From the UHGV virus genome UHGV-1333727: DNA of 12,808 nucleotides; one strand, given 5' to 3'. The translations under genes and the position numbers were made by a program. Shown here piece by piece: positions 274 through 12,808 of this stretch (the stretch's first letter is position 1; each line of letters starts with the position of its first letter). The stretch comes from a virus. The notes beneath the pieces are model-generated. The model made no database searches. It saw only the letters and a list, made by a program, of their open reading frames with translations, and was not told where the DNA came from.

Positions 274-440
274 CCTTCATACCAGTCTGTAAATCAAAAA
301 TTAGCCACCTGAAAGCGCCTCTGACGCAATAAGACACTGCAACCTGTGCAAACGGGTTACGCGGTGGGATTTTTGCGTTGTAGCGCGTTTTATTGATTGT
401 ATCTATGTAAAAGCAAATTACTAAATGCGAGGTATTAATA

Positions 441-2258
441 ATGTCTAGATATTTTATATCGATAAGAGGAAGTAAATTGTTTGCAAAAATTGATGAAGGA
501 ATGGTGTTTATGCGGAAGCGTAAATATCAAACGTGGAATCATTGGGGTAAAGAAAGCGAGTTTGTACGCATGGTGGCCGGTGGCTATTGGAAGGAAATAA
601 CAGCGGTGGAAGCTGGCGATATTCAGTACGCTGATTGCAGCCAGTGCGCGGAAAATTGGCCTGAACTGTTTGATTATCATCCTGATGGTTTTCTGATTAG
701 TAAGGTGACTAGGGGGCGTGGGAAATGTCGTATTAAACCAGGCGATATAATTCGCGGGTTTAAATGCAAAAAAGGCACTGATTATGAACGTTTGCAAATC
801 GGTGTAAAAGATCGCTATTATCAACTGCATCGCGTTGTGTGGGAAATGTTTAACGGCCCTATTCCTGATGGGTATGTAATAGAAAACGGCGATAATTCAT
901 GCGCGAAAATTGAAAACCTGAAATTAATATCACGCGGCGAAAGAGGCATAAAACGTAAGCCTTGGGGAAATAGCGGTATCAAGGGCGTTCTATGGAATAA
1001 GGCGAAAAATAAATGGGAAGCAACAATTAAAGTTAATACAATAAATCACGGCTTTGGTTATTTCGATAATATTAACGACGCAATAAAAGAGCGCATCAAC
1101 GGCGAAATTAGATACTACGGTAAGCAAATGAACCACTTCCCTGATTATATCTCACCAGAAGAAGCGGAGCGCATAAAACAGCGTTATTACAAGGGTGACG
1201 AAATGAAACAAGAAAGTAACACGGAACCGCATGAACATGAGTTACCGCGAGTATTCAAATTTCACGGTCATAATATTAGCGTTAATGACGCCGATGAAAT
1301 CAATCTGATGGATATTGCTGCGGCGTATGGTATTAATGAGGATGAATTACGCCACCGCATTGAAAGCTTGAATAAATTACCTGGCTATATTTATTGCACT
1401 GAACAATGTGACATGCAGATCAAAAAAGGATATGCACCGCTTGAGATCGCAGGAATGATCGTGGCACGGATAGGAGCGGAAAAGGACAGGGTTGATTTAT
1501 CAGTAGCTTTTCGCAAATTTAAAGACAACCCTATCAGCGCGGCTATTGCGCAGCAAACAGATAGCAAACAGGTGGGAGATCTTAAATGCCAGGTAAAAAC
1601 GCTGGAGGGACAAATCAAGGAATTACATGGAGTGCTCAACATAGCGAGAGAAGATCGCGACAGCTACCAACTCCGCGTTGATTATTGGAAACACCAATAC
1701 AGCAAGGCGAATAAGGCATTTGGTGACGAACAGGGTAAACGCCAGAAGCTAGAAAGTGAGCGCGACAATCTGGTTAAAACTAATTGCGAACTAAGACAAA
1801 AGGTCAACGCTGCAAATAACGACGACGCAAAAGCGAAAGCTGCGGCAGACAAACAAACAATCAACGACATTCGTACAGATCTGGCAGAAGCGAAGGAAAC
1901 AATCAAAGCGCAACAACAGGAGGCAAGCAACAAGGCTCTAGTTATCAAGGGCTATCAGCTTAAAGTGGCAGAACTTGAGGATGATAAACTGGAACTGCAA
2001 AATAATGTGAACATCTTACAATCTGGCTATAACCAACTATCAGACAGATATAACAAACTGATTGCTCGCAACATGCAACGCCGGGCAGCACAAAAACGGT
2101 ACATGGGCGACCTGAAACAGCGTCAACAGCGCAATCATGAACGTTATCGTAAGCTGATAATGGCATTGCAAGACAAAGTAAAAGAATTACTGTACCGGCT
2201 CGATAAAAAGCCAGAAGACGGATTCTTTAGCAAGGTTAAAGGTTTATTTCACCATTGA
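441..2258 (+). CDS. HNH-endonuclease-like / AP2 DNA-binding domain protein with long C-terminal coiled-coil region (605 aa)
   Basis: ATG 441 with GAGGT 8 nt upstream. The segment ...YYQLHRVVWEMFNGPIPDGYVIENGDNSCAKIENLKLISRGE resembles the phage HNH_3 motif; ...GIKGVLWNKAKNKWEATIKVNTINHGFGYFDNINDAIKERINGEIRYYG matches the AP2 domain pattern (GV.W.K...KW.A.I.....LG.F....A..AY). C-terminal ~230 aa are K/E/Q/A-rich with heptad-like periodicity. Confidence 0.85.
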   Translation: MSRYFISIRGSKLFAKIDEGMVFMRKRKYQTWNHWGKESEFVRMVAGGYWKEITAVEAGDIQYADCSQCAENWPELFDYHPDGFLISKVTRGRGKCRIKPGDIIRGFKCKKGTDYERLQIGVKDRYYQLHRVVWEMFNGPIPDGYVIENGDNSCAKIENLKLISRGERGIKRKPWGNSGIKGVLWNKAKNKWEATIKVNTINHGFGYFDNINDAIKERINGEIRYYGKQMNHFPDYISPEEAERIKQRYYKGDEMKQESNTEPHEHELPRVFKFHGHNISVNDADEINLMDIAAAYGINEDELRHRIESLNKLPGYIYCTEQCDMQIKKGYAPLEIAGMIVARIGAEKDRVDLSVAFRKFKDNPISAAIAQQTDSKQVGDLKCQVKTLEGQIKELHGVLNIAREDRDSYQLRVDYWKHQYSKANKAFGDEQGKRQKLESERDNLVKTNCELRQKVNAANNDDAKAKAAADKQTINDIRTDLAEAKETIKAQQQEASNKALVIKGYQLKVAELEDDKLELQNNVNILQSGYNQLSDRYNKLIARNMQRRAAQKRYMGDLKQRQQRNHERYRKLIMALQDKVKELLYRLDKKPEDGFFSKVKGLFHH

Positions 2259-2339
2259 AAGCATTAGAACCACGTCATTTATGGCGGGTGATGTCAATTT
2301 TCTTTGTGAATATATATTCAGTAAACCGGAGAAAATAAA

Positions 2340-3008
2340 ATGTCTGAATTAATGGCGCTTAATGGGGCGAACGAAGTATTAACAATGTCTTCTCGTGAGA
2401 TCGCCAAGCTAACTGGTAAACGGCACGATCACATATTGAGAGACATTGACGCCATTGCCCCAAATTTGGGGGAATCAAGCAAATCAGTAACTTACAAAGG
2501 ATACAACAATCAAACACAGAGGGAATGGCTTTTAACTAAGCGTGACTCTTTGCTGGTTGTATCTGGCTATAGCGTTGAGTTACGTGCTCGCATCATCGAC
2601 CGCTGGCAGGAACTTGAAAAACGGGTACAGCAAAACGCCCCTGCAATTCCTCAAACATTAAGCGAAGCGTTGCGCCTTGCTGCCGATCTTGCTGAGGAAA
2701 AAGAACGGCTTGCACTGGTTAATAAGGAACTTGCGCCAAAAGCGGCTGTATGTGACGCGATAGTCAAAAACGATATGCACCGAACGGCTTCAGAGGTTGC
2801 TAAACCGCTGGGAATGTCAGCCGTAAAATTAAACAGAAAACTTTCGGCTGTTGGTGTTTACGATCTTCGCTGTCGCCGCCGTGTATTTAGTCAGTGGTTT
2901 ATTGATGAGGGCTACGGTGAAATGAGGGTAACTCACGATGGATATGAGCAGGCTGTATTCACTGCTAAAGGACAAGTATGGATCACTGAGCTTTTAACTT
3001 GTAACTAA
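2340..3008 (+). CDS. phage antirepressor, Rha-family N-terminal domain plus KilAC-type C-terminal domain (222 aa)
   Basis: ATG 2340 with GGAGA upstream. N-terminal ...LTMSSREIAKLTGKRHDHILRDIDAI... is the characteristic Rha regulatory-protein signature; C-terminal region resembles antirepressor KilAC domains. Assignment by recalled family signatures, not by search. Confidence 0.88.
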   Translation: MSELMALNGANEVLTMSSREIAKLTGKRHDHILRDIDAIAPNLGESSKSVTYKGYNNQTQREWLLTKRDSLLVVSGYSVELRARIIDRWQELEKRVQQNAPAIPQTLSEALRLAADLAEEKERLALVNKELAPKAAVCDAIVKNDMHRTASEVAKPLGMSAVKLNRKLSAVGVYDLRCRRRVFSQWFIDEGYGEMRVTHDGYEQAVFTAKGQVWITELLTCN

Positions 3009-7260: not shown

Positions 7261-7920
7261 ATGAATAAACTTAAAGTAATTGGCGTGATTAGCCATCGCA
7301 CTAACCCTGAGTGTTACCCATCGTTTGAGGTAACAACATGCCGCACAGAATATAATTTTGGATCATACTATTTATTGGGTGTTCGCGCGGATGGCGGCAC
7401 TTATTCGGTTATGGCTGCAAGCTGGAAATTTGATAAATACGCTAATTTATCTAATAAGGATGATGACGGCATGAATAAAGAAAGTGAGATCATTGATGAA
7501 TTAATCGAAGATGAGCGGCATGATTGCGAAACGCAACCGGAAAAAACTGAATGGTTGGCAGGCGAAAAGCCTCCTGTTGGTGTGTGGCTTGATTGTGTAG
7601 GTCTTACGAGCGGAACGGTTCTCGATGTCGTTAAATTTAAATATGTTGGTGATAAATGGGCTATATGTGAAAGCAAGGAAGATTTAGGCTTAGAGAGGCC
7701 GATATCATGGACGACATGCGCTTTCAGGATTCATGTTGGTCCGATAGAAAAGGCGCTTGCTGAAATAGCGTTCGCACTTGCAACTAAGGTCATGGGTGAA
7801 GACGCGGCAAAAGAGATTGACTTTAAACGTGACAACGATTTTACGTGCGATTATCGCAATATGGCGCAAGCAATTATTGATGGATGTATCGGACACGTTG
7901 AATACACGGGGAAAAGATAA
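7261..7920 (+). CDS. hypothetical protein (219 aa), two regions separated by an acidic linker
   Basis: ATG 7261 with GAGGA 8 nt upstream; stop overlaps the downstream start (TAATG at 7918-7922). No recognisable catalytic motif. Confidence 0.8.
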   Translation: MNKLKVIGVISHRTNPECYPSFEVTTCRTEYNFGSYYLLGVRADGGTYSVMAASWKFDKYANLSNKDDDGMNKESEIIDELIEDERHDCETQPEKTEWLAGEKPPVGVWLDCVGLTSGTVLDVVKFKYVGDKWAICESKEDLGLERPISWTTCAFRIHVGPIEKALAEIAFALATKVMGEDAAKEIDFKRDNDFTCDYRNMAQAIIDGCIGHVEYTGKR

Positions 7921-8150
7921 TGGATAAGACGGCAACAATTCTTCTTAGTCGCCCTGCCATCTGCCGTATGCTTGGGGGAATTAGCAGGGGAACGTTCTAT
8001 TCATGGCGTAAAAAGTGGGAGGAAAACGGAACTCCATTCCCGGACCCTGTTGATGTGTTGGGGACCGGGCGGGGCGTCATGTACCGCTATCAGGAGGTGA
8101 TGCGGTTCTTTGATAAGATCGGATTAACGCCAGCCAGGGATAAGACGTAA
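7920..8150 (+). CDS. AlpA-family (MerR-like) small DNA-binding protein, probable excisionase/integrase regulator (76 aa)
   Basis: ATG 7920 with GGGGA upstream. ...LLSRPAICRMLGGISRGTFYSWRKKWEENGTPFPDPVDVLGTGRGVMYRYQEVMRFFD fits the AlpA/Xis pattern (HTH followed by 'FP.P...G.R...W...EV..W'); it sits next to an integrase. Confidence 0.8.
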   Translation: MDKTATILLSRPAICRMLGGISRGTFYSWRKKWEENGTPFPDPVDVLGTGRGVMYRYQEVMRFFDKIGLTPARDKT

Positions 8151-9304
8151 TCCGCAAATTTATTTAACGCCTCCTTTTGTTCATCAAGATAATCATATTT
8201 GTCGTACACTGCCAGTATTCCCCTGAGTGAATGGCCTAATACCTTTTCCGCGACATGTACCGGAACACCTATAGCTGAAAGGTGTGTACGGCACGTCCTG
8301 CGGAGGTCGTGACAGGACCATGATTTGCCTCCCATCCTTTTACGCACGAAGATTGCAGCTACTTTTATCACTGATGCGTTTACTGGTCTGTTCCCTCCGT
8401 TAATCACTGGCGGGAACACATAATCATACTCATGGGAGGATAATACCTCCCTGAGCATTTTTATCGACAAATCTGATAATCCACGCCTGATTTCACTTCT
8501 TGTCTTCGCCACCGCCGCCGGGACGGTCCATACTCCGTTGTCCAGGTCGAGGTGTTCCCTTCTCATTTTCTGCAACTCCCCCACCCTGCACCCGGTTAGC
8601 AATAATAGCTTTAATGCTATCTTGTTCTGACGGTAGATCTGCGAATCATCCACCGTTCGCCAGAAATGGCCTATTTCATCGCACGATAAATAACGCTCGC
8701 CAACCGCATAATTTTCGCCTACGTCAACAACCCTGATATTGTTTATCGCTGTACTGGTCATTAGCCCGCGCCGGATAGCGCTGTTCACAACAATCTTCAT
8801 TCGCTTGAGTATCAGCCCAGCCGTAACCGCGTGGCCCGCCGCAGTGATCTCGCCGAATATGTCCATCCATTGTTTAGTGCTGACATCATCGGCAATATAC
8901 TCACCGAATTTATCGACAACATGGCGCTTAAGCGCGCTCCTGACGTCATTATATGCAACCAGCTTAATAACGTTCGGCAGGGATAAATAGTCACTCACAA
9001 TGGCGCTTATTGTTAATTTGCCACGCTCAATATTTATCGCTTGCTTTACTGAAACAGTTGGGTTTTTCCCCTTCGCTAATAGCTCTTTGTATTCTGCCAC
9101 CGCGTAGCGTGCATCTTTCAATGTCATACTGCCGTAATCGCCAATCTTCATCCTTACAGGCTTACCGTTGAACCTGTACCTGAACTGGAAAATAATTTTC
9201 CCCTTCGGGCTTATCCTGGCAGACAAGCCGTCGCGATCCGCTATCTCGTTCGGGCCGTCATATGGCTTGTTTGCTATTGCGCGTAATTTCGTATCCGTCA
9301 GCAT
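8090..9304 (-). CDS. int: tyrosine recombinase / integrase, P4-type (404 aa)
   Basis: ATG at 9304 (minus) with AGAGG 7 nt upstream. N-terminal LTDTKLRAIANKP...GLSARISPKGKIIFQFRYRFNGKPVRMKIGDY is the P4-type integrase arm-binding N-domain; catalytic region has ...TGCRVGE (Arg), HDLRRT (H-x-x-R) and ...GHSLRGILAVYDKYDY (His...Tyr). Confidence 0.95.
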   Translation of the reverse strand: MLTDTKLRAIANKPYDGPNEIADRDGLSARISPKGKIIFQFRYRFNGKPVRMKIGDYGSMTLKDARYAVAEYKELLAKGKNPTVSVKQAINIERGKLTISAIVSDYLSLPNVIKLVAYNDVRSALKRHVVDKFGEYIADDVSTKQWMDIFGEITAAGHAVTAGLILKRMKIVVNSAIRRGLMTSTAINNIRVVDVGENYAVGERYLSCDEIGHFWRTVDDSQIYRQNKIALKLLLLTGCRVGELQKMRREHLDLDNGVWTVPAAVAKTRSEIRRGLSDLSIKMLREVLSSHEYDYVFPPVINGGNRPVNASVIKVAAIFVRKRMGGKSWSCHDLRRTCRTHLSAIGVPVHVAEKVLGHSLRGILAVYDKYDYLDEQKEALNKFADYVLSLAGVNPILSKNRITS

Positions 9305-9320
9305 TCTGATACCTCTTTTT

Positions 9321-9342
9321 TTTGGTCACGATTTGGTACACA
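9321..9342. repeat. 22-bp direct repeat, copy 1 (TTTGGTCACGATTTGGTACACA)
   Basis: Matches copy 2 at 9562-9583 at 21 of 22 positions; contains GGTCACGAT. Confidence 0.7.
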
Positions 9343-9350
9343 GTTTTATC

Positions 9351-9472
9351 TGAACGGATATTAACACCATTGAACGGATTTAAACACACGACAGGATGAT
9401 TGAGATGTAACTTAGTGAATTTAAATGATATTTTTTATCAACCGTGAACGAGTCTGAACGGGATTGAACACC
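9351..9472. repeat. cluster of five TGAAC(G)-type iteron-like motifs
   Basis: TGAACGGATATTAACACC (9351-9368) and TGAACGGATTTAAACACA (9371-9388) are 20 bp apart; TGAACGAG (9445), TGAACGGGA (9455) and TGAACACC (9465) are phased at exactly 10 bp. Confidence 0.6.
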
Positions 9473-9561
9473 ACGAATCGTTACTGTCTGGAATGGTTAG
9501 CTTTGTGAATAATAATTTATAAAACAGTATGTTGCAGTGCTTTTGTTTTTGGTTTTGGGTA

Positions 9562-9583
9562 TTTGGTCACTATTTGGTACACA
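9562..9583. repeat. 22-bp direct repeat, copy 2 (TTTGGTCACTATTTGGTACACA), preceded by phased TTTGG tracts
   Basis: Copy of 9321-9342 with one mismatch; contains GGTCACTAT. Immediately upstream, TTTTTGG / TTTTGGG / ATTTGGT recur at roughly 8-10-bp spacing (9545-9580). Confidence 0.7.
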
Positions 9584-9608
9584 AAAAGAAACGAGGCGTT
9601 AGCCTCGT
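9583..9608 (-). terminator. rho-independent terminator of tail-fibre gene
   Basis: On the minus strand: stem ACGAGGC, loop TAAC, stem GCCTCGT (plus 9591-9608), followed by UUCUUUUU (plus 9583-9590), about 35 nt after the stop at 9641-9643. Confidence 0.6.
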
Positions 9609-9640
9609 TTCGCGCGGCGATGTTCTTCGCACATCACCTC

Positions 9641-11845
9641 TTATTCTTCGCTTCCGGTCAACTGACTGATAAGCGCTTCAAGTTTTGCTATCCGCTCATC
9701 CATTGCGGCAATGTTAGCTTTCAGGCTTGCGTTCTCCTCTTCCAGTTCGGTGACGCGGTTATCCGTTTCGCGTGCCACCTGGACAAGTAAACCAGTCACC
9801 GCCGCATAGTCAACATTAAGGTAACGTGTTTCTTCTCGTAGCTCGTTGCCGTCAACGGTCGGACCCTGCAATTCTTCACCGTAACGAGTAAACGATCCTA
9901 CGGCTTCCGGTAGCGCCTCCATTACTTCCTGTGCAATAACGCCAGCATAAGGAAGGCCGTTTTCCTTGAGCGTGTAGGTGTACCCGTTCATTTTGCGGAT
10001 TAATTCAGTGGCTTCACCTATAACCTGAATGTTATCTTTAAGGTCGCGGTCAGATGATTGGTGAAGTGTCTGGCATGTGATATTACCGCTAACTTCTGCG
10101 GTGGCGCTTTTAATCTTATACTCTACTGAGAGATCACGGACTTCAACCCTCCCATCGTGGCGAACAATAAGATCACCGTTTGTTTCACCTTTTGCGTTTT
10201 TAGCCCTGATGTGAACTTCTCCAAGCGTATCAGTATTTGTAGGCGCAAAAATAACGCCGCGTTCCGACTGATCCTCATTTTGGAACCATACATGGGCGGT
10301 TCCACTTTTTGAACGCAGGTATAGTGAAGGTGTTGCTTTAGTGATCGACAGATCACCTGACATAATGTCGCCGGATTTTTTCACCTGCGCATCGTTAGTT
10401 ACGTTACCAAGTCCAACATCCGATTTCGACGGCTTGTATTTGGTTCCGTATAGCTCATTTATGTTAAAAGTACCATTGTTGAGTCTATTATCGTTACTAG
10501 AGTAAATCTTTACTCTACCGCTTTCGTAATCGATATTAATAGCTGACCACGTATCGCCGCACCGCGAGAATATACCAGAACCGTGGCTGAAAATTGTTGA
10601 TTCGCTACCTGTTGGTTTTCCTGACCTCCAGAAACACCCACCTTTCGCCCTTAGCTCTTGTAGTAGTTCCTTATCGGTCATTTTACCATCCAAAGTAAGA
10701 CCGCTACCGCCAAGACCAAAAGCGCCTATAAGCATAGCATTAGAAAGGCCTAAATCTGCTTTAGTAGGTTTGTTTACCTGGTCGTAAATCCTTGCTGCTG
10801 GGCTTTCAATAAATCCTGAAGGTGCATTGTCTTGTTTAACAAATCCTTCAGGAATGTATAATTCCGTGTTGCCAGTCTGCGCCAGCACCGCTACTTTTGT
10901 GCCTTGAATATAAGATCGCTGGTAGCACCAGACCTCGATATAGCCGTCACCTTTAACCAGGCCGTAACGCATTTGACTATTATTGGGAAGGTTTGGTGAA
11001 CCGAGTCGGCGAATACTTAAAAATTTAGATATATTTTCACTGGTTACTTCGCCTGTGTCGTTAAGATCTCGAGCGGAGATCTCTATAAAGTCAATATTCC
11101 CGTAACTTAAACCGTAGCCACCGCCATTTGTAACCATTAGCGTTAAGTGGCACTCTGAAAACTTTGGATCGCTAAGTTTAGCAATCTTAACGTAAGCGCC
11201 ATTACCGCTAGTATTAACAGGCCAAGCACATTGGACCATTGGGCTGGTAAGCCTTCCCATTTGATTCAGATATTTTTGCGCCCTGTTCTCTGATGTTTTG
11301 GCGTTGGTTTCGCTTGTTTTCGCTGCCGTCTCACTTGCCTTAGCGTTGGTTTCTGATGTTTTCGCTGCCGTGGCGGATTTTGCAGCCGCTGTTTTTGACG
11401 CTTCTGCTGCGTTTTTGTCGGATCCTGTTTTTTGAGCGTTGGCGGTTGATTTGGCTGTCTCTGCGCGAATGTTGGTAAGAAGCTGATCCAACTGACCTTC
11501 GCCGCCAAAATCCTCCCACCACTCGACAGCGGCGGCGATCTCTGTTTCCTTGCCCTGGTAGTAACGCAGGGTTTCAGCCACATCCTGAGCAAGCCCATCA
11601 ACTGAGATCGAGTCAGATAGCAGGATGCTGAATTTTGTCCCGGCAGGGATGGCGGGGTTAGCCGCTGGCGTCACTGACAGTTCAGTGCCGCTTTTAATTT
11701 CTGTGATGGTAAAGATCTGTACCGGATTGCCAACAGCAATGAGCGTGCAACCTACACGAATAAGAGAAAGCGGCGCGGAAAAGTTTGTTCCCGTGCCTGT
11801 AACAGTATTGCCGTTGATGGCAATTGTTCCAGTTGTGTAAATCAT
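9641..11845 (-). CDS. phage tail fibre protein with Stf-like Ala/Lys/Thr/Ser repeat region and C-terminal intramolecular chaperone (peptidase S74-like) auto-processing domain (734 aa)
   Basis: ATG 11845 (minus) with GGAG upstream. Residues about 125-190 carry AAKTSETNAK-type repeats like those in lambdoid side tail fibres. C-terminal ~140 aa (...SSDRDLKDNIQVIGEATELIRKMNGYTYTLKENGLPYAGVIAQEV... then coiled coil) match the endosialidase-type chaperone domain with the Ser...Lys (S-x4-K) dyad. Confidence 0.9.
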   Translation of the reverse strand: MIYTTGTIAINGNTVTGTGTNFSAPLSLIRVGCTLIAVGNPVQIFTITEIKSGTELSVTPAANPAIPAGTKFSILLSDSISVDGLAQDVAETLRYYQGKETEIAAAVEWWEDFGGEGQLDQLLTNIRAETAKSTANAQKTGSDKNAAEASKTAAAKSATAAKTSETNAKASETAAKTSETNAKTSENRAQKYLNQMGRLTSPMVQCAWPVNTSGNGAYVKIAKLSDPKFSECHLTLMVTNGGGYGLSYGNIDFIEISARDLNDTGEVTSENISKFLSIRRLGSPNLPNNSQMRYGLVKGDGYIEVWCYQRSYIQGTKVAVLAQTGNTELYIPEGFVKQDNAPSGFIESPAARIYDQVNKPTKADLGLSNAMLIGAFGLGGSGLTLDGKMTDKELLQELRAKGGCFWRSGKPTGSESTIFSHGSGIFSRCGDTWSAINIDYESGRVKIYSSNDNRLNNGTFNINELYGTKYKPSKSDVGLGNVTNDAQVKKSGDIMSGDLSITKATPSLYLRSKSGTAHVWFQNEDQSERGVIFAPTNTDTLGEVHIRAKNAKGETNGDLIVRHDGRVEVRDLSVEYKIKSATAEVSGNITCQTLHQSSDRDLKDNIQVIGEATELIRKMNGYTYTLKENGLPYAGVIAQEVMEALPEAVGSFTRYGEELQGPTVDGNELREETRYLNVDYAAVTGLLVQVARETDNRVTELEEENASLKANIAAMDERIAKLEALISQLTGSEE

Positions 11846-11855
11846 CGCAATGACT

Positions 11856-11926
11856 CCATTTTGTTAATTAACGGAATAATTCTACCATTTTGTGATCTGT
11901 GTTGCATTTTCTGCTTACACAAAATG
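11856..11926. promoter_or_regulatory. candidate operator/promoter elements in the divergent tail-fibre/lipoprotein control region
   Basis: CCATTTTGTT (11856-11865), CCATTTTGTG (11885-11894) and the inverted copy CACAAAATG (11918-11926). No confident -35/-10 could be assigned by eye. Confidence 0.3.
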
Positions 11927-12022
11927 TATTTGTTGATTTGTGTCAATATACGAAATGTGCTTTTGTCGGATATTTAAGCCACCGGATGAACCGGATGAAC
12001 AAACGAGAATGAGGCTTTAAAA

Positions 12023-12271
12023 ATGAAAAACATGTTCAAAGTGGTTTTGTTCGCTGCGGCTGTAGCTCTTACTGGATGTGCTGTTGATAAGGAAGCTGCA
12101 TTGCATAACCTGCCGAATAGTGGAGTAATTCCACAGGATGTTGTTTATGATGTTAACGGGCATCTTGTCTATGACACTGAAAAACTGCCTTATACTGGTC
12201 AATGGTGTCACGAACTCGATCACAACATGCGCCGCATCGGTAGCCCTTCTAACTGTGTAGCTAACTACTAA
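12023..12271 (+). CDS. small lipoprotein (82 aa); candidate phage superinfection-exclusion / receptor-masking lipoprotein
   Basis: ATG 12023 with TGAGG upstream. Signal peptide MKNMFKVVLFAAAVALTG followed by Cys (lipobox LTGC); mature part ~63 aa with three further Cys; followed directly by a strong terminator. The functional call is inference from context. Confidence 0.85.
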   Translation: MKNMFKVVLFAAAVALTGCAVDKEAALHNLPNSGVIPQDVVYDVNGHLVYDTEKLPYTGQWCHELDHNMRRIGSPSNCVANY

Positions 12272-12278
12272 AAGAAAA

Positions 12279-12305
12279 CCCCGCGCGAAGCGGGGTTATT
12301 TTTTA
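12279..12305. terminator. bidirectional rho-independent terminator
   Basis: Stem CCCCGC (12279-12284), loop GCGAA, stem GCGGGG (12290-12295), then TTATTTTTTAT on plus; an A-run (AAAAGAAAA) precedes the stem, giving a U-tract for the convergent minus-strand transcript as well. Confidence 0.8.
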
Positions 12306-12686
12306 TATCCATGTTCCTGAACTTCTTGTTATAAGTATTAAACCTGGTTTTCTTTTTGCTGCATTAGATGTATTGGTAAAGTTTTCCGTCACCTCTACTG
12401 TAATTGTTGGGTATGTGAGGCCAGATACACAGTGCACCGCGACAGTTGACATTGCTGGGGTTGATGCTGGCCTTTCTATATCAATTGTTTTTGCGTGTCC
12501 GCTTATATTTATAGTTACATTGATGCGAGAAGATTCCCCATATGTATAGTATGACAAATCATATGGAATCATAACGTAAACTGTTTTTGATAAACTTGAT
12601 GAACTTGAATCAAGATAAGTTTTCGAAACGCGCCTGCTGCCATTTCCCCTCATTGACGGAAATACATCCTCGTTTATCACTGACAT
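12303..12686 (-). CDS. hypothetical protein (127 aa), Ser/Thr/Tyr-rich, in an AT-rich block; possibly a gene fragment
   Basis: Only long ORF in 12303-12808 and it ends at the bidirectional terminator. RBS is weak (GGTGA about 10 nt upstream), there is no signal peptide, and an in-frame stop lies directly upstream. Confidence 0.45.
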   Translation of the reverse strand: MSVINEDVFPSMRGNGSRRVSKTYLDSSSSSLSKTVYVMIPYDLSYYTYGESSRINVTINISGHAKTIDIERPASTPAMSTVAVHCVSGLTYPTITVEVTENFTNTSNAAKRKPGLILITRSSGTWI

Positions 12687-12724
12687 ACTTGCTACGTCAC
12701 CAACAAAACTTGTAGCTTTGGATT

Positions 12725-12808
12725 ATGGATCACTTTAAGTGGTTCTTCATTATGCTGGGTATGATAGGTATATATCTTTCTTTTGTTTTATGGTATAGCC
12801 TTTCTTTT
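12725..12808 (+). CDS. possible 5' end of a membrane-protein gene running off the window (partial; MDHFKWFFIMLGMIGIYLSFVLWYSLSF...)
   Basis: ATG at 12725 opens a frame with 28 sense codons to the window edge, encoding a strongly hydrophobic helix. RBS is weak (GGA 3-5 nt upstream). Manual translation only. Confidence 0.3.
   Translation, partial: MDHFKWFFIMLGMIGIYLSFVLWYSLSF

Follow-up and report, generated by a model that had tools for sequence, protein, structure and literature searches.

A tail-fibre gene that seems isolated beside a phage integrase is very probably the last tail gene of an mEp021-like phage

Introduction

Is a tail-fibre gene that sits beside an integrase gene, with no complete tail gene in view, a self-contained host-range cassette or the visible end of a tail operon? 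The question is raised by virus genome UHGV-1333727, a window of 12,808 nt that is the whole stretch of DNA analysed here. An earlier note, made from the sequence alone, had described a stand-alone fibre gene, with a repeat region by the integrase on one side and a divergent lipoprotein gene on the other. These flanks are as described. In our reading, to which we give a probability of about 0.88, the gene is stf, the side tail-fibre gene and last gene of the tail module of an mEp021-like (mEpimmI) temperate E. coli siphophage, and the window represents the excised form of that phage. The gene looks isolated because the sequence crosses attP and because the neighbouring tail gene J is truncated, probably as an artefact of assembly. 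The features on which this reading is based are collected in Table 1.

Table 1. Features of the stf locus, with positions in the window.
Feature	Position	Strand	Evidence
Tyrosine integrase (int)	8090..9304	-	Pfam Phage_integrase and Arm-DNA-bind_3
attP; 9-bp core CTGTCTGGA at 9484-9492	9321..9583	.	Core common to window, attL and attR
Intrinsic terminator after stf, 10-bp stem then TTTTTGT	9588..9611	-	Hairpin and inverted-repeat scan
stf, 734-aa side tail-fibre precursor, stop included	9641..11845	-	ORF, PHROG, homologues
Peptidase_S74 intramolecular chaperone and C-terminal coiled coil, aa 598-734	9641..10054	-	PF13884; predicted self-cleavage just before Ser598
Variable shaft and distal (putative receptor-binding) region of mature fibre, aa 196-597	10055..11260	-	Comparison with relatives
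N-terminal anchor and helical bundle, A/K/S/T/E-rich repeats (AAKTSETNAK, two copies), aa 1-195	11261..11845	-	Homologue and structure alignments
RBS GGAG, 8 nt upstream of ATG	11854..11857	-	Read from sequence
Divergent lipoprotein Lpp, 82 aa	12023..12271	+	PHROG lipoprotein family, E=9e-27
Bidirectional terminator between J and lpp	12277..12297	.	Terminator scan
J 3' end, last 138 codons of central tail-fibre/host-specificity gene, broken at 12718	12303..12718	-	100% identity to intact J
Foreign 90 nt, first transmembrane segment of BCCT-type transporter	12719..12808	+	Homology; probable chimeric-assembly junction

Results

The stf gene encodes a tail-fibre precursor with an S74 chaperone

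The open reading frame assigned to the locus proved to be real, running for 734 codons on the minus strand without interruption. Its product matches tail-fibre families in PHROG, with E values down to 7e-209, and has more than 3000 homologues; the best 120 listed come from E. coli or are metagenome proteins without a name, and the names among them are tail fibre or S74 peptidase. The identical 734-aa protein is encoded on six metagenome contigs. NCBIfam placed neither the fibre nor the lipoprotein nor the J remnant in a family. In E. coli, close homologues with as much as 88% identity already carry the annotation tail fibre or S74 peptidase. The assignment itself is known and ordinary.

The protein had been described as combining Stf-like repeats with a self-cleaving chaperone, and both are present, the cleavage being predicted. 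The S74 profile PF13884 matches aa 598-649 with 51.7 bits, where the cut-off is 22 (E=1.1e-13), and is covered from position 1 to 57 of its 58 positions. The earlier note had given the lack of an S74 match as one ground for refutation, and this ground falls away. The S-x4-K dyad lies in 'SSDRDLK' (S598-D-R-D-L-K603), which puts Ser598 and Lys603 five residues apart as claimed; S598, D599, L602 and K603 are invariant among 18 homologues, and the motif aligns with 'SSDRRIKKDI' of 6F45. A profile search with the chaperone also matched 7DC3 and, weakly, 4UW8 (E=0.003) and 3GUD (E=0.08). The S74 domain forms the C-terminus of the protein (aa 598-734 of 734), and the regions upstream of it match fibre families. 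As computed from the sequence, the predicted cleavage would yield a 597-aa subunit of 63.9 kDa and a 137-aa C-terminal fragment of 15.2 kDa. An AlphaFold2 monomer model built from an 18-sequence alignment was of low confidence (mean pLDDT 43.9, pTM 0.30; chaperone region pLDDT 40-54).

A variable centre lies between conserved ends

The AAKTSETNAK repeat occurs in two copies at aa 160-183, and the 9-mer AAKTSETNA is likewise found twice in lambda Stf orf-401. Residues 1-195 share 63-85% identity with the N-terminal parts of the fibres of mEp021 (mEp021_82), mEp554 (mEp554_113) and MagusPhagus. Pfam gave nothing on aa 1-197 or in the centre, even at E<10; PF08400, the prophage tail fibre N-terminal domain that marks a lambda-type Stf, was among the profiles without a match in aa 1-197 at this threshold, and it is carried by some homologues of the distal part of the protein.

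When the central domain was compared among relatives, as the earlier note had suggested, no similarity was detected between the centre of the stf protein and the same region of the mEp021, mEp554 and Magus fibres. Within the 734-aa class, conservation is 57-88% in the centre and 97-100% at both ends. At the nucleotide level, the centre shares about 85% identity with two kinds of lambdoid fibre, the Stf of phage Ayreon and prophage fibres with a different N-terminus, and an 88-nt stretch of it is 92% identical to T5 ltf. These alignments point to exchange at the level of domains, with both ends conserved (anchor, aa 1-195; chaperone, aa 580-734) and the centre swapped among relatives, a pattern that is already well known as classic tail-fibre mosaicism. 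The borders of exchange lie inside the protein and not at the ends of the gene.

An attachment site separates stf from the integrase gene

The repeats beside the integrase are attP. They comprise 22-nt direct repeats (9321-9342 and 9562-9583) and four TGAACGG-type repeats within 9351-9479, and the core is common to the window, to attL beside zntB/ynaN and to attR beside dgcM. The prophage occupies about 54 kb between zntB/ynaN and dgcM in E. coli. The integrase end of the window has 100% nucleotide identity to prophages in E. coli MIN12 and PRO_A-1370, where it adjoins dgcM. Integration at ydaM (=dgcM) has been published for this phage group (PMC11893012), and the window carries a type I integrase of that specificity, as mEpimmI phages do. 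In the prophage form, stf and int stand at opposite ends; they adjoin each other in the window because attP lies between them.

On the other side of stf, Lpp is identical at 77 of 82 residues to the type-C lipoprotein of mEp554. The type-C protein Lpp010 excluded LamB-dependent phages (PMC11893012), and by similarity Lpp is probably a superinfection-exclusion moron.

The signals attributed to stf were confirmed. The gene has its own RBS, GGAG, and its own terminator, a hairpin followed by a T-run (9611-9588, minus strand). The 148 nt between the stf stop codon and the att core hold this terminator and no ORF. A separate tfa gene, as would accompany a lambda-type Stf, is absent downstream, presumably because the chaperone is built into the fibre protein. 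In the stf-lpp spacer (11846-12022) a consensus promoter scan found no sigma-70 site; by eye, a weak candidate with an extended -10 (TGgTAGAAT) can be placed at about 11887-11879. Since a bidirectional terminator and an opposite-strand gene lie between J and stf, expression of stf needs either antiterminated late transcription or its own promoter.

Tail genes lie directly upstream of stf in relatives

Over its replication and integrase genes the window is 86-92% identical in nucleotides to mEp554, mEp515, mEp021 and MagusPhagus, with the same gene order, which places it among the mEpimmI phages. Strains MIN12, 2-331 and STEC306-308 are listed as mEpimmI (PMC11893012), and the integrase end of the window is 100% identical to prophages of strains on that list. 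Contrary to the claim that stf is not flanked by tail genes, a contiguous tail cluster lies just beyond the window edge in the relatives and in the contigs that encode the identical fibre: J, I, K, L and M are directly upstream in five of the six contigs. There, and in related phages and prophages, the order is M-L-K-I-J, divergent exclusion lipoprotein, stf, attP, int, and the same order of tail genes was found in phage MagusPhagus, an E. coli prophage, mEp021 and mEp554. That stf follows J as the last gene of the tail operon, like a lambda-type Stf, thus holds for all complete relatives and for five of six contigs, and the window itself has only a remnant of J. The earlier note had itself named a tail cluster just beyond the window as a result that would refute its view. 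The counterpart of the stf protein in mEp021 carries the annotation 'tail structural protein', and mEp021 virion proteins have been mapped by mass spectrometry.

Nor is the window free of tail genes, as had been stated. The minus-strand segment 12303-12718 holds the 3' end of J. It shows 100% identity to the final 416 nt of J, which codes for 1813 aa, on the five contigs and, over the same bases, to the J of an E. coli prophage; it also has a weak PHROG match, 'tail protein and host specificity'. The ORF list gives only a 127-aa ORF at this place because the gene is broken at 12718. With J truncated there, the window molecule itself does not show an intact tail cluster.

The J gene breaks off at a probable assembly junction

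Identity to J ends abruptly at 12718/12719. For the 90 nt that follow, neither 5426 E. coli genomes nor phage records contain a match, and among the phage records the last 94 nt drew only chance hits in BLAST. Exact-match scans for the junction and the foreign 90 nt found none in viral_contigs or genome_contigs, and a metagenome exact-match scan returned one already-known contig only; for the native source of the last 90 nt homologues alone were found. The foreign piece is homologous to a gene downstream of mttB in gut MAGs, and past the junction the DNA shares about 88% identity with MAGs of Eggerthellaceae and with other, unclassified gut MAGs. In the sole public contig with the foreign sequence, which has 3.4x coverage, this piece runs in the opposite direction to the 5' part of a gene of the same type. 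The break of J into gut-anaerobe transporter DNA is thus most likely a chimeric, low-coverage assembly.

A second assembly, 99.6% identical overall, has the same junction; it is identical to the window from 8808 to the end and differs at 51 positions elsewhere. A shared junction is unexpected under purely random assembly error, and both assemblies could derive from the same reads.

Discussion

Alternative readings of the locus

The features of stf could be taken to describe an autonomous receptor-binding cassette by the integration module, transcribed alone, exchanged as a whole gene and independent of the tail operon: it comes with an RBS and a terminator of its own, J is kept apart from it by another terminator and an opposite-strand gene, no complete tail gene is present in the window, and fibres in the same slot vary in length among relatives (449, 734, 841 and 1160 aa). 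We consider this highly improbable, given the contiguous tail cluster in every complete relative and in five of the six contigs with the identical protein, the J remnant inside the window, the proximity of stf to int as an effect of attP, and exchange borders at about aa 195 and 580, within the protein and not at the borders of the gene. The idea of a swappable host-range cassette therefore holds for the central domain of the protein only and fails for an independent gene. A different fate would await J if its break at 12718 were genuine, that is, if the window came from a rearranged or defective mEpimmI derivative that had lost most of J and been joined to DNA resembling a Gram-positive gut anaerobe. 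The occurrence of one junction in two assemblies that differ at 51 other positions speaks for such an event, and if it were real, the S74-bearing Stf would be the element's only intact receptor-binding protein. Against it stand the likeness of the joined DNA to gut MAGs and its absence from E. coli genomes, the fold-back in which an inverted transporter piece lies beside the 5' part of a gene of the same type, the low coverage, and the intact J in the other five identical-protein contigs. The two assemblies, identical from 8808 onward, fit a single set of reads that was assembled twice; a true rearrangement is accordingly very unlikely.

The protein might also be an enzymatic tailspike, a polysaccharide depolymerase, instead of a fibre, because the part from aa 3 to 236 can be aligned to residues 4-223 of the depolymerases 7VYV, 7VZ3 and 7LZJ from Klebsiella phages at E of about 1e-37; for the N-terminal region against 7VYV and 7LZJ the value is 5e-37. 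In these depolymerases the residues up to 185 are anchor and helical-bundle domains (PMC10581125), so the match covers essentially those domains and not the beta-helix catalytic domain (residues 272-642). The centre of the stf protein has no Pfam enzyme or beta-helix match, even at E<10; in PHROG and the PDB it matches proteins of fibres, namely the T4-type long tail fibre, the SU10 fibre and T5 pb1. With the similarity limited in this way, we rejected the tailspike identity as extremely unlikely.

A proposed mechanism for the side fibre

The features, synteny and att site were read directly; homology to known fibres suggests how the product of stf would work as the side fibre of an mEp021-like phage. 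The C-terminal S74 chaperone would nucleate trimerisation of the precursor, and once the trimer has folded, the Ser598/Lys603 dyad would cut just before Ser598 and free the 15.2-kDa fragment. The mature 63.9-kDa subunits would then build the fibre, with the anchor and helical bundle docking on the tail tip. The variable region may make the first, reversible contact with a cell-surface receptor, and J would make the committed contact with an outer-membrane protein.

The main value of the analysis lies in correct annotation: a receptor-binding gene that seems to stand alone by an integrase may be no more than the last part of a tail operon viewed across attP, and a neighbour that breaks off may owe this to chimeric assembly. 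The conserved anchor and chaperone are also natural splice points for fibre engineering in a common group of gut coliphages, whose group-defining paper did not analyse the side fibres of mEpimmI phages.

Comparison with known systems

Close counterparts are E. coli prophage proteins of 75-89% identity, named in RefSeq 'tail fiber domain-containing protein' or 'pyocin knob domain-containing S74 family peptidase'. They form a class of 733-737 aa, collinear with the stf protein over its full length, and a class of 1106-1136 aa with an extra 370-390 aa between '...KIKSATAE' (aa 584) and 'VSGNITCQTL...'. This insert, the distal part behind the 'pyocin knob' name, is missing from the window protein. 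A reading of low probability makes the 734-aa class a natural in-frame deletion that fuses the chaperone straight to a shaft domain and gives rise to a new fibre tip.

Within the phage group, mEp554_113 (841 aa), MagusPhagus CDS0019 (1160 aa) and mEp021_82 (449 aa) occupy the same slot, after J and the opposite-strand lipoprotein gene and last before attP. The central 384 aa of the stf protein are unrelated to theirs, and the S74 chaperone is 85% identical in the mEp554 and Magus fibres but only 32% in the corresponding region of mEp021.

Lambda Stf (orf-401/orf-314) offers a model for gene order: J, the outer-membrane moron lom, stf, attP and int are arranged essentially as in mEpimmI phages, and the J, outer-membrane moron, stf ... 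int layout is that of lambdoid phages. The two fibres have AAKTSETNA-type repeats in common, and by analogy the stf protein may act as an accessory fibre. Lambda Stf works with Tfa, whereas the stf of the window has neither PF08400 nor tfa and carries an S74 domain instead; in lambda, a 5-kb b region lies between tfa and attP.

A C-terminal S74 domain with a Ser/Lys dyad is shared with T5 pb1 (4UW8), K1F endosialidase, the GA-1 neck appendage (3GUD) and S16 gp37 (6F45). In these chaperone fibres and spikes the rest of the protein is unrelated to the stf protein, apart from the 88-nt stretch of ltf; T5 is a virulent phage. The Klebsiella depolymerases Depo32 (7VYV/7VZ3) and RAD2 (7LZJ) begin, like the stf protein, with an N-terminal anchor and helical bundle, but they lack an S74 domain, and what follows the bundle is a beta-helix enzyme in them and fibre domains in the stf protein.

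Position of the fibre gene in the tail module

The identical 734-aa product of the fibre gene under study, stf, is encoded on six public metagenome contigs. On five of the six, genes for Phage_min_tail, Phage_tail_L, an NlpC/P60 protein, a 176-aa protein in the tail-assembly I position of relatives, and a 1813-aa GpJ-type protein (J, the central tail-fibre/host-specificity protein) lie directly upstream; the GpJ-type gene is followed by an opposite-strand gene for an 82-aa lipoprotein and then by the fibre gene. The same order was found in MagusPhagus, one E. coli prophage, mEp021 and mEp554, and an equivalent layout of J, outer-membrane moron, stf ... int is present in lambda, in the lambdoid phage Ayreon and in one lambdoid prophage. 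In the window itself, 12303-12718 (minus strand) matches the final 416 nt of the J gene for the 1813-aa protein at 100% identity, and the earlier statement that the window holds no tail genes is thus incorrect. The gene had also been called isolated, a stand-alone cassette; given the contiguous upstream cluster in these contigs and relatives, that interpretation is refuted by synteny, and stf does not stand alone.

The lipoprotein gene (12023-12271, plus strand) encodes a product identical at 77/82 residues (94%) to the type-C lipoprotein of mEp554; type C, tested as Lpp010, excluded LamB-dependent phages, lambda included (PMC11893012). Despite the lipoprotein match, the C-terminus of J in the window shares only ~21% identity with that of mEp554, and 56% with that of MagusPhagus.

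Features of the window and of the stf product
Feature	Position	Strand	Detail
HNH_3 endonuclease	441-2258		605 aa, long coiled-coil tail
Rha/Ant protein	2340-3008		222 aa
22-nt direct repeats	9321-9342 and 9562-9583		both arms of att core
TGAACGG-type repeats	within 9321-9583		n=4, integrase side of att core
Hairpin and T-run	9611-9588	minus	3' of stf stop codon
stf ORF	9641-11845	minus	734 codons, unbroken (ORF reading)
Anchor and helical bundle	aa 1-195 of stf product
S74 chaperone and heptad-rich tail	aa 580-734 of stf product		85% identity in mEp554, MagusPhagus
Peptidase_S74 domain	aa 598-649 of stf product		Pfam, 51.7 bits, E=1.1e-13

Domain content and mosaicism of the fibre

The gene features listed in the earlier note were borne out by the ORF, although its minus strand had been left unsaid and the remnant of J overlooked. 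The Peptidase_S74 match lies far above the Pfam threshold of 22 bits, and the claimed S-x4-K dyad is present as Ser598 and Lys603, set five residues apart by the motif SSDRDLK; a predicted cut before Ser598 would split the protein into a mature chain of 63.9 kDa and a fragment of 15.2 kDa, as computed from the sequence. The claimed Stf-like repeat AAKTSETNAK occurs twice, and AAKTSETNA is likewise found twice in lambda Stf (orf-401), in a low-complexity stretch resembling that of the window protein. A GGAG motif 8 nt 5' of the ATG and the hairpin after the stop codon agree with the gene having its own ribosome-binding site and terminator. In PHROG, the product matched tail-fibre families (best E 7e-209), and, over the S74 region, its family profile matches chaperone-bearing proteins of solved structure (6F45, 7DC3, 4UW8 (T5 pb1) and 3GUD).

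Across the fibres of mEp021, mEp554 and MagusPhagus, residues 1-195 show 63-85% identity. They are also homologous (E=5e-37) to the N-terminal region of two Klebsiella phage depolymerases, Depo32 and RAD2; in Depo32, residues up to 185 are described as the anchor and helical-bundle domains (PMC10581125). Residues 196-579 are unrelated among these three phages and the window phage; this region shows ~85% nucleotide identity to Ayreon Stf and resembles fibres of many lambdoid prophages with a different N-terminus, among them the PF08400-bearing homologue P0119. Conservation within the 733-737-aa class is 97-100% at the ends but only 57-88% over aa 181-540. In a longer class (1106-1136 aa; RefSeq name 'pyocin knob domain-containing S74 family peptidase'), 370-390 additional residues separate aa 584 from the chaperone, the difference mapping around aa 584/585, between KIKSATAE and VSGNITCQTL. 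Since the 734-aa class is without this distal 'pyocin knob' part, its chaperone is fused directly to a shaft-type domain; at least 14 protein clusters, 80-100% identical, contain the class in intact form.

An 88-nt segment (10350-10437) matches the gene for the L-shaped tail fibre of T5, a virulent phage, at 92% identity and encodes KPSKSDVGLGNVTNDAQVKKSGDIMSGDL, a motif that may be a conserved hinge or recombination linker. In the E. coli PRO_A-1370 prophage (L002:14158-16547), otherwise the closest chromosomal relative, annotation of the fibre gene is limited to a C-terminal pseudogene fragment; even so, a single alignment containing 21 gaps covers its DNA, and the fibre appears to be decaying in this lysogen.

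Phage group, attP and the break in J

Across its replication and integrase part, the window shares 86-92% identity with mEp554, mEp515, mEp021 and MagusPhagus, members of the mEpimmI group, which was described in 2025 and comprises temperate E. coli siphophages of ~54 kb (PMC11893012). The window's two halves are separated by ~54 kb in E. coli chromosomes: sequence up to 9492 adjoins dgcM, and sequence from 9484 rightwards adjoins zntB/ynaN. A 9-bp core, CTGTCTGGA (9484-9492), is common to the window, attL and attR. The separation of the halves and the shared core identify what had been described as an integrase-proximal repeat region as attP, spanning 9321-9583, and the window as the excised form of the phage genome. 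The TGAACGG-type repeats are probably either arm sites for Int or sites for Xis. Type I integrases of mEpimmI insert at ydaM (=dgcM), and the strains matched here, MIN12, 2-331 and STEC306-308, appear in the same study (PMC11893012). The integrase gene (minus) and a 76-aa AlpA/Xis-like helix-turn-helix gene (7920-8150, plus) are convergent, with a 61-nt overlap (8090-8150). MagusPhagus lacks any equivalent of the HNH_3 and Rha/Ant genes, its flanking sequences directly adjoining each other, and this segment (393-3002) looks like an inserted homing-endonuclease/anti-repressor cassette.

The identity to J stops abruptly at 12718/12719, and the last 90 nt of the window (12719-12808; plus strand, reading WIMDHFKWFFIMLG...) encode the initial membrane segment of a transporter of BCCT type. 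One public metagenome contig, L004 (OQVO01000263.1; ERZ1745232 NODE_263), has the same junction; from window position 8808 onwards the two sequences do not differ, and overall identity is 99.6%. A genuine rearrangement is a rival reading of low probability. The coverage of L004 is 3.4x, and past the window end (L004:1-2936) it carries the 5' end of a transporter gene of the same kind, inverted, then mttB and an AP_endonuc_2 gene. This flank shares ~88% identity with gut MAGs, of which one is labelled Eggerthellaceae, and had no match in 5426 E. coli genomes. A foreign fold-back at low coverage, together with the intact J of five other contigs, argues for a chimeric assembly (probability about 0.9).

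Proposed function and relation to known fibres

The domain content, conserved dyad, attP and position at the end of the tail module were established in this analysis; for the mechanism, S74 chaperones such as those of K1F endosialidase and T5 pb1 are the established models. By analogy, the C-terminal domain would nucleate folding of the trimer and then cut itself off before Ser598, the anchor would dock the mature fibre on the tail tip, and the variable part may make a first, reversible contact that speeds adsorption, with J probably binding an outer-membrane protein receptor. Transcription of stf past the terminator after J could be by antiterminated late read-through or from a weak candidate promoter in the spacer. 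The mEp021 protein in the stf slot is annotated 'tail structural protein', and the virion proteins of mEp021 have been mapped by mass spectrometry.

In its predicted role the stf product resembles lambda Stf, but two defining features place it outside that family, since a Pfam search found no PF08400 N-terminal domain and the locus has no tfa gene (an ORF search of the interval between stf and attP found no tfa-like ORF). It is clearly a member of the S74-chaperone fibre class and is the orthologous-slot fibre of the published mEpimmI group. Close homologues are already annotated in E. coli, with up to 88% full-length identity among the matches listed, and tail fibres have long been known to be mosaic at the level of domains, with conserved ends. 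The finding is thus real, ordinary and already known, and a specialist would see nothing surprising in stf or its setting.
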